DNA of 64,000 bases from a virus (IMGVR_UViG_3300021514_000002:192001-256000), one strand, 5' to 3'; numbered from the stretch's first letter, positions 3,493 to 61,515 are shown. Made by a program: numbers and translations. The notes: generated by a model from the letters alone, not told the origin.

Positions 3493-3636
3493 TTATTCTT
3501 TTTCTTCTTGTTGTATATCAGTAAGATAATCTGCAACTGTCTTGCCTGTAGGTTCAGCGGGTTTAGTTGCTTCAATTGCGGCTTCAACTGCATCCTTTTC
3601 GCGTGCTGTGTTATTGATATCTTTTATTAAATCCAT
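3493..3636 (-). CDS. Small hypothetical protein (47 aa, not in ORF track)
   Basis: MDLIKDINNTAREKDAVEAAIEATKPAEPTGKTVADYLTDIQQEEKE; fills the gap between co-oriented genes. Confidence 0.6.
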   Translation of the reverse strand: MDLIKDINNTAREKDAVEAAIEATKPAEPTGKTVADYLTDIQQEEKE

Positions 3637-3638
3637 GG

Positions 3639-3875
3639 TTAATTATCCAATTCTTGTTTTATTTGTTGTTTGACTTCTTGACGTTGTGCTTTAGCTTTAG
3701 CATATTTACCTGTTTCTTTATGTGCGCCTGCGCCTGATTGTTGGGCGAACTTAGCCACTGGATTATTAGGTGCATCCATAGTTGGTTTTTCTGCCTTGTT
3801 TTTACGTGCACGCTTGGCTTCGCGCTTACGCTTTGTGCTACTTTTCGCCATTTCCAATAATTCAGCAACTTTCAT
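3639..3875 (-). CDS. Small basic hypothetical protein with MKVAELLE leader
   Basis: Lys/Arg-rich; ATAAATA late-type motif just upstream. Confidence 0.7.
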   Translation of the reverse strand: MKVAELLEMAKSSTKRKREAKRARKNKAEKPTMDAPNNPVAKFAQQSGAGAHKETGKYAKAKAQRQEVKQQIKQELDN

Positions 3876-3908
3876 AACTGCTCCACAATAAAGATTATAT
3901 TGTATTTA

Positions 3909-4232
3909 TCATACAGTAAAACTTTCCCCACATCCACATTCGGCAGCAACATTGGGATTATTAAACTTAAACCCTTCATTAAGACCTTCTTTGGTGTAAT
4001 CTAATTCAGTTCCATTAATATAAATAAGACTTTTTTGGTCAACGATGAGTTTAACTCCGTTTGATTCAAACACTACATCATCTGCGTTAACAATATCAAT
4101 AAATTCAAGAACGTATGCCATTCCTGAACATCCTGTTGTTTTTATACCTACGCGCAAACCTAAGCCTTTACCACGACTTGTAAGATAATCCTGAACTCGT
4201 TGCGCGGCAATCTCTGTTATGGATAGTCCCAT
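3909..4232 (-). CDS. iscA: A-type Fe-S carrier protein
   Basis: [20 protein letters not shown] and [15 protein letters not shown], with all three conserved Cys. Confidence 0.95.
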
Positions 4233-6167: not shown

Positions 6168-7517
6168 TTAGAATATTAACATGTTATTGTCGATCCTTGT
6201 CCATGTACTAAAATCCCAACCCGTTAGAAAGTCAGCGCAAACTATGTTATGTTGCACTATTCTCCTATTTTCTACAGTATCACCAACTAATTCCAATAAT
6301 CTGCGGTGACACAATTTAACGTTATCTTCCATTAAATCAATTCCAAATGTTGTCTCCAATGCTTCTTTGGGAGATTGTCCACACCTCAACTTTTCCTTAA
6401 TTATTGCTAAGATAAAATTGCCATCACCACAAGTAGGTTCAAGTGTTATTTTGTCACTATCACATAATCCAGCTTCTGCTAAGTCTGCAATAATATCAGC
6501 GGTGTGTTGATGTGACGTAAAAATTTCACCTGTAATTTTTACTCTTTCAGATGAGCGTTTTATTTCACTAACAATTAAATCATTTTTAAGATTAATAGTA
6601 TTATAATGATCCGAACCTACCGTTCGTACCCATTCAATTAATTCAATTGATAAATTTTTTGATTTATAATAAGCACGCTCATATTCTTCCTGTGAACGAT
6701 ACGCCTTGCCCGTTAATATATCATATGGCATCGATCCCAAAGATTGACGATTTACATGTGATATTGTTGTTGTCATGCACAACAATAATCCAAATATCCT
6801 CATCTTAAAATGATAATAGGCGTTCACTGCTTGAAATTCATCATCAAACGTGAGCATGTATCGTTTCGCTGCGTTGTCGGTGTGTGTGCCGTTCTTTAAA
6901 TCTGGAATCCACACAACGGAACCATCTAAGTCTAATTTGACACCTGTTAATAATTTACTACCAGTTAAAAATTCAAGAGGTTTTGAACCGCCAATATAAT
7001 TTATATCCAGTTTACTATTAAAATGAATCTTTGGTTTAGTAGAAGGTTGGTAAGGAACAAGTGGCATTCTTTTTTGACCAACCGTACAAATATTCCATAA
7101 TTGTTTCCCTTCTTCACCTAAATATAATATAGTTCCATTAGATGTAGTAAAAACTGTCGTGGTATGCAATGCCGTGGTACCAAAATATCTTATCAACTCA
7201 GTTTCTTTTTGACTTTCGCCATTAGCGAAGAATATACAAGCACCAATACCTTTGATTGGTTTATTTGTAACTGGACTTATAAAAGCAGAGCCAGGATACG
7301 TACTTATCTTCTTAACGTTACCACTTAAAAAGGATGACCTTAATTCTTTATTACTATTACTACCACCGCGCAAATAACTGGCGCTGGTAATCAGTGCCAT
7401 TTTACCAGTATCGCTTAATAAGTCATTCTTACATTTTTGTAAAAATATCTTATCAATTTCCTTGTCCCATGGGACATTTCCAACAATAAAGTCAAACATT
7501 TTACTCTGCGGTGGCAT
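6168..7517 (-). CDS. Amino (N6A/N4C) DNA methyltransferase with permuted motif order
   Basis: N-terminal FDFIVGNVPW (motif IV-like); C-terminal TGEIFT, LEPTCGDGNF, GIDLMEDN, NIVCADFL (motifs X, I, II, III). Confidence 0.75.
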   Translation of the reverse strand: MPPQSKMFDFIVGNVPWDKEIDKIFLQKCKNDLLSDTGKMALITSASYLRGGSNSNKELRSSFLSGNVKKISTYPGSAFISPVTNKPIKGIGACIFFANGESQKETELIRYFGTTALHTTTVFTTSNGTILYLGEEGKQLWNICTVGQKRMPLVPYQPSTKPKIHFNSKLDINYIGGSKPLEFLTGSKLLTGVKLDLDGSVVWIPDLKNGTHTDNAAKRYMLTFDDEFQAVNAYYHFKMRIFGLLLCMTTTISHVNRQSLGSMPYDILTGKAYRSQEEYERAYYKSKNLSIELIEWVRTVGSDHYNTINLKNDLIVSEIKRSSERVKITGEIFTSHQHTADIIADLAEAGLCDSDKITLEPTCGDGNFILAIIKEKLRCGQSPKEALETTFGIDLMEDNVKLCHRRLLELVGDTVENRRIVQHNIVCADFLTGWDFSTWTRIDNNMLIF

Positions 7518-40392: not shown

Positions 40393-40989
40393 TTACTTTC
40401 GTTGTTTTCCCTTATGCGCTTTCGTCATCATTTTAACCATTTTATTTAGGCGCTTACGAATATCGTCTGCTTGTAACCATAAATCTTCACCCTTTAAAAT
40501 ATCTACAAGCTCAGCTTCTGTTATGAATGGGATATAATAATCGCGCGTTAAGGTATTGAACCATTTAATAGTTGCTTCAAGTTGCTGTACTTGCTCATTT
40601 CCCTTGCCATATATTCCACCACTAAAATTATGAATCATCATAGTGCTATGGTCATGTATAAGAAATTCATCAGCCGCTAAAAATATTAGTGAACCAAGCG
40701 AATAGGCTTCACCTTCTAAGCTACAGACAATGTGCGCTTCTGAGTATTTCATAGCATTGATAAGTTGGATACCTGTGGATAAATCGCCACCTTGTGTATT
40801 TAGATGAATAATTACGGTTTCATCTGAACTGGCAAGGCGAATTTTGTGTATCATGTCAACATACAAGGCGGGAATATCAATATAACCACTTAAATAATAA
40901 TGCTGAATCTTTGAAACTAACGTCTGTTCATAATATTCATATGCTTTTATTTCACTTTCTACTTCTTCTTCCGCGATTTCTGCTTTCAT
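40393..40989 (-). CDS. ClpP-like protease
   Basis: IHLNTQGGD, GEAYSLGSLIFLAAD (catalytic Ser), MMIHN (His); exact TATAAATA at 41023. Confidence 0.85.
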   Translation of the reverse strand: MKAEIAEEEVESEIKAYEYYEQTLVSKIQHYYLSGYIDIPALYVDMIHKIRLASSDETVIIHLNTQGGDLSTGIQLINAMKYSEAHIVCSLEGEAYSLGSLIFLAADEFLIHDHSTMMIHNFSGGIYGKGNEQVQQLEATIKWFNTLTRDYYIPFITEAELVDILKGEDLWLQADDIRKRLNKMVKMMTKAHKGKQRK

Positions 40990-41140
40990 ATATCGACCCG
41001 TGTTAAATTAGTATAATAAATGTATTTATACACTAGCGAGTAAGGGGTTTAATGCTTTTTTAGGTTATTTTTTAAATAAATTATGGTAAATAGTTAGGCT
41101 GCTAATGCAATATACATATATACATCAGAGGGAATTAACT

Positions 41141-41890
41141 ATGGAAAAGTATTATGGCTATGTCTATATCTGGAGAGATTCTAAATGCAATATGTATTGC
41201 ATTGGATCGCATTATGGAACCATTGAAGACAGTTACATTACATCTACGGGGTGGATGGTAGCCGCTTATAAGAAACGACCAAACGATTTTAAAATGCGAG
41301 TTTTAGAATATTTAAACGAGGACGATAAATCGCTTTTATTGGATATTGAACAAAAATACTTAGATATGATAAAGCCAGATGAATTAGGGAAGCGTTACTA
41401 TAATCTTAAAAAATATGCATCAGGCGGCGGAAGGATAATTGGTCAAAAAAATAAACAAGACCATTTAGCGGGTGGTTGGAATAGAGGTTTAGATAAAGAA
41501 ATGATGCAGTTGCGTAAAACTGGCAAATTTTGCATTTTAATAGATAATCCAAAAAGGAAAGCACCAGTAAGGCGAAAGAGTGGATGGCAACATACAGAAG
41601 AAACTAAGCAAAAAATATCGAAGGGGCTTAAAGGAAAGCGAGCGTGGAATAAGGGAATATCACTGACTGATATACAGCGGGCTGCATTGTCTGCTTCATT
41701 AAAAGGCAGAACAGCATGGAATAAGGGCAAATCTAGTTCCGTATCTGCGGATAATGGTAAAAGTGGTGCAAAGAAAATGAGTAAAACCGCACAGGGAAGA
41801 AAACGGCATTATAAAGAGGATGGTAGCTGGACATGGATTTATAATGTTAACGGCGAGTGGAGATTAACCCCACCCACCAATAACGATTAA
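41141..41890 (+). mobile_element. Seg-like GIY-YIG homing endonuclease with NUMOD3 motifs
   Basis: YGYVYIWRD..YCIGSH..DSYITS; HTEETKQKISKG and AWNKG repeats. Confidence 0.85.
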
Positions 41891-42185
41891 CTATTCTGTT
41901 GCCAGGTCGTCAAACCCCGAATCGATCACGCCGCGAGGCGAGTTTCTTCAAAAAAAGCGTCATTAGCTGCTTTTAATTTAATTTATGCCATTTACGATGG
42001 TCATCTGTCGTATCATCCACTAGCCGTTCTTAACCACGTCGAATCCATTTCATCCCCGTTGTACGTCGGCTGAGCCTTTTACAGCGTCGTAAGGCTGGAA
42101 GCCGTTCCAGTCCCCTTACCAGTTGTTCGGTGGAGATGTGGGCGTCGAAGCCCAGTCCGCAATTCTTACTAAATTCGCTTCATAT
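41885..42185 (-). ncRNA. ssrA: Circularly permuted (two-piece) tmRNA
   Basis: Acceptor piece ..GGAC TGGGC TTCGAC GCCCA CATCTCC A CCG (3' end 42128) lies upstream of the coding piece GGGGATGAAATGGATTCGAC (5' end 42057). 7-bp acceptor stem with G3:U70 and A73. Tag ORF 41926-41970 encodes (A)ANDAFFEETRLAA. Outer ends approximate. Confidence 0.88.
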
Positions 42186-42195
42186 GATAGTATTC

Positions 42196-42717
42196 TTATT
42201 TATCATCCTTCGTATTATCTTTTGCCCAATCTAAATTAAGGTCTTCGGCATATTCTTCCACGATTTCAATAGGTTCTTCAAATTTAGGAAGATCTTTACA
42301 TTGTAAACTACCAACATCATAAGAAAGTGTTACATGTGGCTTATAGTCAGGAAAATCGTATGTTGCCTCGTGCTCTTTCATTAATTCCTTATGTCTTTTT
42401 GATAAAGCAGTGCAAGTATACTTCAAAACCAAACACATTGCAACCTTTCCATCATCATCAGGTTGCGACGGCCATTTTTCGAAGCCCGATGGTGTACCTT
42501 CTAATATATCATCATACTTACCTTTGGCCTTATAGTCTGGTAAATATTTTCTACTGTATAATAAAGTGGTATGCATTTTTTCGGGTTCTATGGGATTTGG
42601 TATATCATTATCTTTAATAAACTTTTTAATCGCATTGATAGTTTTGTTACTTAGTCTTACTCCAGCATAAGTTCCTTTTTGTATTTTTTCTTCAATAATC
42701 TCGGTCAATTTCATCAC
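42196..42717 (-). CDS. 2H phosphoesterase, Acb1 / T4 gp57B-like
   Basis: Two HxT motifs (MHTTLLYS, PHVTLSY), GTYAG N-terminal motif; leader MKLTEIIEE. Confidence 0.8.
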   Translation of the reverse strand: MMKLTEIIEEKIQKGTYAGVRLSNKTINAIKKFIKDNDIPNPIEPEKMHTTLLYSRKYLPDYKAKGKYDDILEGTPSGFEKWPSQPDDDGKVAMCLVLKYTCTALSKRHKELMKEHEATYDFPDYKPHVTLSYDVGSLQCKDLPKFEEPIEIVEEYAEDLNLDWAKDNTKDDK

Positions 42718-60270: not shown

Positions 60271-60344
60271 TGGTGCCCACGGTGGGATTCAAACCCACGT
60301 ACAAGGATTTAGAATCCCCTGCTATATCACTCAGCTACGCGAGC
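60271..60344 (-). tRNA. tRNA with CUA anticodon (amber suppressor-type)
   Basis: GCTCGCG TA GCTG AGTGATA TAGC A GGGGA TTCTAAA TCCTT GTAC GTGGG TTTGAAT CCCAC CGTGGGC A CCA. Confidence 0.85.
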
Positions 60345-60627: not shown

Positions 60628-61515
60628 AAAGGTTGAGATTATACCTTCTTCATTTGTACCTTCGAGTCATTATCCCATCACCTGCGACAGTTAGGGTTCT
60701 ACTCTTATCCACACCCCCAAGGGGTGTCTACAAACATGACTGCATTTTTTAAAGGGATGCGATACCCTTACCATGATAAACTACTCAAAGTTTTATCTAC
60801 CGTCAATCCTATCGGACTGTTAAGGGTTCGACCCCAACGTGCGACTCTGCTTTAAAACCATAGACCTTGCGGGTTGTCTGGTCACTACATTCACCGAAGT
60901 GTGTAGTATTAAGCCATTTTAATTTATCACTGGAAGTGACTTTGCTTTTTTAAAAGATAGTCGGGATTGAACCGACAGTCTTCTGCTTTAGAGGCAGATG
61001 CCTTACCATTTGGCTATATCATTACCAACGACGATGTGCACTTCCAATAGCTTCATGTCTTTTTAGGACACAAAATACTACACACCGAATGTCTTTCTCC
61101 TACCGGATACTTGACTGTCTTTCAAGACTCATGGGTTTTTACACCCGCGAACCTAACAGGAACATCCGAAGATGTCACCTAAACTGAAACAACGCCCTTG
61201 ATTGTAGTCTCGGACTATTCATTTCTACCCTTTATTCCTTATGGTTCGTGTTTTTGCATGATTGGTGATAACTGCTACACTATTCTTAATTAGCTCGTGT
61301 TCCCTATGTATCCGAAGATAAACACAGGCACGTCAACTAACATTCTTTACCAATCTAACACTTCACCACTAGCACCGCTGCTCTTGTCAACGATGCCACC
61401 CTTTCAGGGGGAATGAGGCTTGCATTAGTTTACCATTTCTGGCGATGGTTAAGTTGGATTACCATCTTTCCCCCTGTTGCCAAGGTTTATATCCCAATGC
61501 GATAATTCTTAAAGT
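60628..61515 (-). ncRNA. Large structured RNA, GOLLD-like, with embedded tRNA-like element
   Basis: No ORF >=60 aa; tandem sigma70 promoters; many UUCG/GNRA-type hairpins; long-range 12-bp and 8-bp helices around a tRNA-like element; 3' hairpin AAGGT-ataatctca-ACCTT. Confidence 0.65.
60952..61023 (-). tRNA. Second CUA-anticodon tRNA-like element
   Basis: D arm GCC-AAATGGTAA-GGC; anticodon arm TCTGC-CTCTAAA-GCAGA; T arm GTCGG..CCGAC; AT-rich acceptor AATGATA/TATCTTT with one mismatch; no CCA. Confidence 0.7.

Follow-up and report, generated by a model that had tools for sequence, protein, structure and literature searches.

The locus analysed here raises the question of whether a jumbo phage maintains a functional ribosome-rescue RNA of its own, encoded in circularly permuted, two-piece form. 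tmRNA is the RNA that frees stalled ribosomes, and the first-pass annotation had proposed such a gene on the minus strand of a 64,000-nucleotide stretch of viral DNA, the whole of which is called the window below. The window corresponds to bases 192001-256000 of a 363,531-bp IMG/VR virus record, which was rated complete by CheckV. Judged by its genes, the source is a T4-like jumbo phage of 363 kb. The neighbourhood of the tmRNA gene was T4-like, with thymidylate synthase, DHFR, Acb1, primase, UvsY, and UvsW recognized by Pfam and PHROG, and a homologue of the late sigma factor gp55 was encoded at G000:291784-292314 (+) (phrog_234, E 7e-21). The genome contained 42 tRNA genes, two tRNA-CUA genes, and a single tmRNA. 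DNA of the phage was present in hydrothermal-vent metagenome runs of two studies, and contigs of the second study carried pieces identical to it, including the endonuclease gene described below. Megablast of GenBank phages with the 12 kb around the gene gave no match, and the sole similarity found by distant blastn of the locus was Acb1-coding, to Acinetobacter T4-like phages. Among the matches listed, no RNA run contained the locus; one run marked "RNA?" was probably DNA, and its matches were confined to short conserved stretches belonging to other organisms.

The identity of the gene as a phage-borne circularly permuted (two-piece) tmRNA gene was confirmed at the sequence level by ARAGORN and Rfam independently and was supported further by its conservation, with compensatory changes, in sister phages. 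ARAGORN in tmRNA mode reported a tmRNA* at 41835-42219 (-) with the tag AANDAFFEETRLAA. The Rfam model tmRNA_permuted (RF04321) matched 41926-42189 (-) with 105.8 bits (gathering threshold 47, E 1.3e-19) over model positions 1-213 of 213, and alpha_tmRNA (RF01849) matched 41885-42243 (-) with 62.9 bits (gathering threshold 50), so that both exceeded their thresholds. The quality of the match is far beyond chance. In the genome-wide search with RF04321, the window gene was unique, apart from one weak, tRNA-like match of 25 bits.

The elements of the gene followed the permuted order: the 3' module (42189-42128) came first, then the spacer (42127-42058), and last the 5' module, which starts at 42057. 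A script check placed every element that the first-pass annotation had listed on the minus strand where it had been reported, exact to the base. The acceptor piece (42128..42189 (-)), delimited by the RF04321 alignment, helix coordinates, and complementarity, consisted of the P2a strand UAUCAU (42189-42184), the P2c/d strands (42164-42158), the T arm UGGGC-UUCGAC-GCCCA preceded by GGAC (42154-42139), the acceptor 3' strand CAUCUCC (42138-42132), and the discriminator A73 (42131), followed by CC at 42130-42129 and by G instead of A at 42128, the annotated end of the module. The 70-nt spacer (42058..42127 (-)), also as annotated, lay between the two modules and was predicted to be excised. It contained no AUG and no ORF, and its hairpin of -19.4 kcal/mol was not significantly better than those of shuffled sequences (z -1.5).

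The coding piece (41885..42057 (-)) was defined by the RF04321 and RF01849 alignments and the ARAGORN tag. It began with the acceptor 5' strand GGGGAUG (42057-42051), then AAAUGGAUUCGAC, and included the D-loop analogue AAAUGGAUUCGA (42050-42039), the P2 strands including AUGAUA (42016-42011), and the PK1 stem (about 42011-41994). GGGGAUG paired with CAUCUCC to form the 7-bp acceptor stem with G3:U70 and A73, in agreement with the original description. P2a contained 6 bp, and P2c/d paired in the model alignment; P2b was weak, with two mismatches. Stem 1 of PK1 was present, its register being uncertain. The resume codon GCA was located at 41970-41968, the 14-codon tag at 41970-41929, and the stop codon UGA at 41928-41926. 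The frame at 41970-41926 read GCA GCU AAU GAC GCU UUU UUU GAA GAA ACU CGC CUC GCG GCG UGA, that is, AANDAFFEETRLAA and a stop, and its first four codons and its CUC GCG GCG UGA end were those recorded in the first-pass annotation. A 3' H-type pseudoknot at 41917-41888 was detected in a pseudoknot search of four homologues, and the 3' tail ACCUGGCAACAGAA matched the alpha consensus in the RF01849 alignment. Minimum-free-energy cofolding of the two pieces reproduced the T arm and the acceptor stem, but P2 did not form and the 5' leader was paired with the tag region; covariation was preferred over the minimum-free-energy fold.

Relatives of the locus were reached by probing viral contigs first with UvsW and next with an alignment of ClpP, whereas the single ClpP-like protein as a query for related loci found none. 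The same gene order, ThyA, DHFR, Acb1, tmRNA, ClpP-like, primase, UvsY, and UvsW, was present in four viral contigs (L141, L139, L140, and L156). L140 equalled L139 in tmRNA score and in the identities of the neighbouring proteins, which left three distinct sisters and, with the window, four distinct copies. RF04321 scored 94.0 bits in L141, 87.7 bits in L139/L140, and 126.3 bits in L156. In each sister, the tmRNA occupied the same place, between the Acb1 anti-CBASS gene and the ClpP-like protease gene. In the window, the upstream neighbour was the Acb1 anti-CBASS 2H phosphoesterase of 173 aa (42196..42717 (-); PF23474, E 3.4e-37), which was syntenic in L139, L140, L141, and L156.

The remark that such a gene is easily missed by annotation held for part of the lineage. 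ARAGORN found the window copy and the one in L156, but it was silent at L141 6745-7006, L139 4350-4568, and L140 7020-7238, where RF04321 gave 88-94 bits. The missed copies had T loops of 8 or 6 nt, or their CCA was not encoded. Surveys of phage tmRNA by ARAGORN alone may therefore undercount, and the practical point is that RF04321 finds copies with odd T loops or without an encoded CCA that ARAGORN misses.

Comparison of the four distinct copies pointed to selection on both structure and tag. Compensatory changes were found in 11 of the 18 pairs of the acceptor, T, and P2a helices, and no pair was broken. Compensatory double changes occurred in five of the six P2a pairs, in four of the five T stem pairs, and in two of the seven acceptor stem pairs, the last with one additional change from G-C to G-U. 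G3:U70 was invariant in all four copies. The tags were AANDAFFEETRLAA, ANDAYYGEDLRLAA, AANDSFYGDFAIAA, and ANDNAFYGDVALAA, each of exactly 14 codons; the AND start was conserved, the C-terminus was LAA in three copies and IAA in L139, and synonymous differences between copies were seen in the terminal Leu and Ala codons. The resume-codon context UAAA(U)GCA was conserved as well. The 3' H-type pseudoknot (4+4 bp or more) was present in three of the four copies, and its stem 2 covaried. The spacer measured 70 nt in the window and 64, 21, and 82 nt in the three relatives. From these comparisons, the tmRNA structure and the tag are under purifying selection. This pattern of covariation and tag conservation is that of a functional tmRNA and fits poorly with a relic; on this evidence, the gene is real, conserved, and very probably functional. 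In addition, a marine-metagenome contig (run X3) was about 95% identical to window positions 41982-42446 over Acb1 and the tRNA-like domain and diverged exactly at the tag region, where it read ANDSYY. Evolution of the tag seems to be faster than that of the remainder of the gene.

The motif upstream of the gene bears on when the RNA would be made. As first described, a late-type motif overlapped the stop of the upstream gene: the T4-type late-promoter-like motif GATAAATA at 42204-42197 (-) overlapped the Acb1 TAA stop (42198-42196) and ended 7 nt before P2a. A [T/G]ATAAATA motif was located 6-7 nt upstream of the tmRNA in three of the four copies; L141 carried GATAAATA and L156 TATAAATA at the same distance as in the window. 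The L156 motif was clear of any stop codon, including that of Acb1, so coding constraint does not explain the motif. In L139, the exact NATAAATA motif was absent upstream, where an endonuclease gene was inserted. Motif occurrences across the genome were scored by whether an ORF of at least 60 aa, beginning with ATG, started 5-60 nt downstream of them. This applied to 32 of 56 TATAAATA (57%), 19 of 30 GATAAATA (63%), and 17 of 27 CATAAATA (63%), against a mean of 13% for permuted-composition controls. AATAAATA was upstream of ATG ORFs in 23% of cases, far below the other three, and the late promoter of the phage thus looks like BATAAATA. In T4-like cyanophages, NATAAATA has been reported as the late promoter (PMC2984593). 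A scan for sigma-70 promoters and terminators near the gene returned nothing above shuffle expectation. The "late" reading was supported indirectly by the motif enrichment, the upkeep of the motif in L141 and L156, and the gp55 homologue, and we infer that a late-type promoter in front of the tmRNA is the best reading.

Taken together, these data favour a functional circularly permuted ssrA gene that a T4-like jumbo phage lineage has maintained, a reading to which we assign a probability of roughly 0.78. The timing of transcription, the processing, charging, and tagging, and the benefit to the phage would then be as follows. RNA polymerase directed by gp55 would start about 6-7 nt past GATAAATA and produce a single precursor. 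Host RNase P would cleave 5' of G1 (42057), and tRNA 3'-end enzymes would trim after A-C-C (42129), with the terminal A supplied by a CCA-adding enzyme, a family of which the phage has one member. The 70-nt spacer would be lost, and the two pieces would be kept together by the 7-bp acceptor stem and helix P2. Host AlaRS would charge the RNA via G3:U70 and A73. Together with host SmpB and EF-Tu, the RNA would enter stalled ribosomes, and translation would resume at GCA. An SmpB gene was not found in the phage genome, so the function of the tmRNA would depend on its fit with the SmpB of the host. The appended product would be Ala-AANDAFFEETRLAA, which predicts peptides tagged with ANDAFFEETRLAA in infected cells, and through its LAA end this product would become a substrate for ClpXP-type degradation. 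The phage would probably benefit from ribosome rescue sustained late in infection, with host RNA synthesis off and broken mRNAs accumulating.

Downstream of the tmRNA gene lay a ClpP-like serine protease of 198 aa (40393..40989 (-); PF00574, phrog_1827), and a NUMOD3 homing endonuclease gene (41105..41890 (+); NUMOD3, phrog_314) was situated convergently between them. The endonuclease stop codon (41888-41890) overlapped the last 3 nt of the 3' pseudoknot. This gene occupied the site of the terminator hairpin of the relatives and was absent there in L141, L139, and L156; the window tmRNA has no terminator after it because the endonuclease gene sits there. A SegE-like GIY-YIG gene in L139 (3663-4337 (-)) and L140 was found on the side of the tmRNA opposite to that of the NUMOD3 gene. 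With two different freestanding homing endonuclease genes on opposite sides, the tmRNA thus has flanks on which mobile endonucleases land. This arrangement resembles that of SegB in the T4 tRNA region. In L141, the interval between the tmRNA terminator and clpP contained a small ORF (7104-7237 (+)) whose N-terminal half was hydrophobic. This ORF carried its own copy of GATAAATA, was followed by a terminator, and was absent from the window.

The ClpP-like neighbour gives rise to a further reading, which adds to the main one, is compatible with it, and seems to us rather doubtful: that the tmRNA and the adjoining ClpP-like gene form one conserved late phage unit for tagging and degradation. Tagged products of stalled ribosomes would be passed to a barrel of phage ClpP in complex with ClpX or ClpA of the host, so that they could be cleared or their amino acids recycled, and the phage would borrow only the SmpB and the unfoldase of the host. 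The ClpP-like protein aligned with solved ClpP structures, and its putative catalytic triad, Ser97/His120/Asp169, was invariant in three homologues. The gene also had its own TATAAATA motif (41030-41023 in the window), as it had in L141 and L139. All four tags ended in a ClpX-type AA degron. The tmRNA and clpP were direct neighbours in L141, L139, and L156, separated in the window only by the mobile endonuclease gene, and the next relative, L142, was without both genes within the 20 kb examined. However, the entire block from ThyA to UvsW was syntenic, so the adjacency of tmRNA and clpP is not independent evidence, and terminator hairpins stood between them in L141 and L139. Beyond the lineage, tblastn (E 1e-4) detected no ClpP-like homologue beside the tmRNA in the other tmRNA-bearing viral loci fetched, and the distant ClpP-like loci L159 and L160 were without a tmRNA. 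No ClpX/AAA_2 unfoldase was found in the phage genome, and ClpP is patchy in jumbo phages without a link to tmRNA (PMC7824862). If such a unit did exist, the degradation tag as well as the proteolytic chamber would come from the phage, which would clear or recycle truncated proteins during virion production.

Several odd features of the tRNA-like domain weigh against the main reading and bear on an improbable one, in which the gene is a decaying, non-functional copy or a decoy for SmpB or AlaRS, whose RNA would be produced without being able to finish trans-translation, any effect coming from competition with host tmRNA. The window T loop, UUCGAC, had 6 nt compared with the canonical 7 (UUCRANN), on a T stem whose 5 bp were present and covaried. 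Among the sisters, the T loop had 6 nt in L139 and 8 nt in L141 (AGGCAGAG, without the UUC motif), so that non-canonical T loops (6, 6, and 8 nt) occurred in three of the four lineage members. Of the ARAGORN-detected permuted tmRNAs in other viral loci fetched, 47 of 49 had a 7-nt T loop, and 47 of 49 encoded CCA. The encoded 3' end was ACCG in the window and ACUA in L139, neither of which contains a full CCA, and ACCA in L141 and L156. A precedent for the decoy is mycobacteriophage DS6A, for which a tag-less tmRNA-like RNA in competition with host tmRNA is reported (cited in PMC11915505). The earlier remark that the gene-encoded CCG end would need CCA repair was right, and the phage encoded an enzyme of the PolyA_pol/CCA-adding family (one gene; PF01743, 73.9 bits); most of its tRNA genes encoded CCA. 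What makes decay or decoy improbable is the state of the remainder of the gene. The tag frame was intact and of equal length in all four copies, with the AND start and the (L/I)AA end, the resume context was conserved, and the compensatory changes extended over three helices with no pair broken. In L156, moreover, the T arm was fully canonical, with a loop of 7 nt, and CCA was encoded, which indicates that the lineage began from a standard gene.

That the locus is an integration-site remnant, left by a temperate phage that took up part of host ssrA when integrating in the tmRNA gene, is hardly credible: viral contigs with alpha-type tmRNA sequence are numerous (more than 119 matches to a 14-mer), many of them probably prophage ends, but the gene here was complete rather than a mere 3' fragment, had replication genes around it in a T4-like genome of virulent type, was syntenic in sister phages, and matched one of the 401 sampled genomes over 31 nt.

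The same searches bear on the origin of the functional ssrA gene favoured here. BLAST of the gene against those 401 genomes, sampled from the class of an alphaproteobacterial MAG, gave this single match with E 8.5e-4, and no donor was found among them. Searches of viral contigs for exact 20-mer and 14-mer matches retrieved many unrelated permuted tmRNAs, with a global identity of at most 65%; these searches revealed no close relative, local blastn aligning short conserved stretches alone. The same 20-mer was found in bacterial genomes of several unrelated phyla and thus gives no clue to the host. With respect to subtype, the window passed alpha_tmRNA (62.9 vs 50), L156 passed beta_tmRNA (94.6 vs 84), and L141 and L139 passed neither. 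The beta-class tmRNA of L156, unlike the window gene in this respect, was located at 3561-3949 (+) on a 117-kb sister contig. Since orthologues fall under different subtype models, the Rfam subtype is no reliable guide to host or donor, and alpha/beta subtyping is in practice unusable for such inference in this lineage. The mixed subtypes and the single weak match therefore indicate that the tmRNA gene is an old resident of the phage lineage.

The bacterial two-piece tmRNAs were reportedly described by Keiler, Shapiro and Williams in 2000 for Caulobacter and the Alphaproteobacteria (RF01849), and those of the Betaproteobacteria (RF01850) are said to have followed from Sharkady and Williams in 2004. 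The window gene shared with them the order of acceptor piece, spacer, and coding piece, the tRNA-like domain, P2, PK1, the tag of the form AND...LAA, and the 3' tail matching the alpha consensus. It differed from them in its viral carrier, ambiguous subtype, 6-nt T loop, and incompletely encoded CCA.

Among phages, a two-piece tmRNA has been reported in Methylophilales phage Melnitz and also in pelagimyophages and other marine T4-like myophages (Buchholz et al. 2022, PMC9004378), and 53 unique two-piece tmRNAs were counted in isolate phage genomes, mostly from aquatic phages (PMC9004378). The novelty implied by the first-pass annotation was therefore overstated, because phage two-piece tmRNAs had already been published; the locus adds a well-documented case to a kind of phage gene that was already known. 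Like Melnitz and the marine myophages, it combines a permuted tmRNA of proteobacterial type and an ANDN-like tag with a T4-like carrier without SmpB. Unlike in that group, the carrier is a 363-kb vent jumbo phage. The motif before the gene is the late-type NATAAATA, whereas the Melnitz gene is reported to lie behind an early promoter; in addition, Rfam found no glutamine riboswitch on the window gene, and the neighbours are Acb1 and ClpP-like genes. None of the homologues fetched from outside the lineage aligned with it beyond short conserved stretches.

tmRNAs together with SmpB have been reported in huge phages (Al-Shayeb et al. 2020, PMC7162821), a tmRNA has been reported in Sinorhizobium phage AP-J-162 (PMC11242549), and the 2025 tmRNA database, the source of the merged model RF04321, contains 79 phage sequences (PMC11915505). 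Like the huge and jumbo phages and the mycobacteriophages, the vent phage is a large phage with many tRNAs and its own ribosome-rescue RNA, but some huge phages also carry SmpB. With this lineage, vent jumbo phages join, with good support, the known set of phages with two-piece tmRNAs. The late-type motif and the ClpP-like neighbour offer a testable idea of why phages carry tmRNA, and the current understanding of trans-translation is unchanged.

Other RNA genes of the phage were also observed. A GOLLD RNA (Rfam RF02032, 199 bits) was located at 60630-61088 (-) of the window with a tRNA of anticodon CUA embedded in it (60952-61023 (-)), and a second tRNA-CUA was found 600 nt downstream (60271-60344 (-)). 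Both would read UAG. Recoding of TAG, which the two genes suggested, was rejected on the high coding density under code 11 and the presence of only four candidate read-through ORFs. The weak RF04321 match was situated outside the window, in a tRNA cluster at G000:10881-10928 (-), and its 25.3 bits corresponded to model positions 36-95, covering the T arm and the acceptor part of the model.
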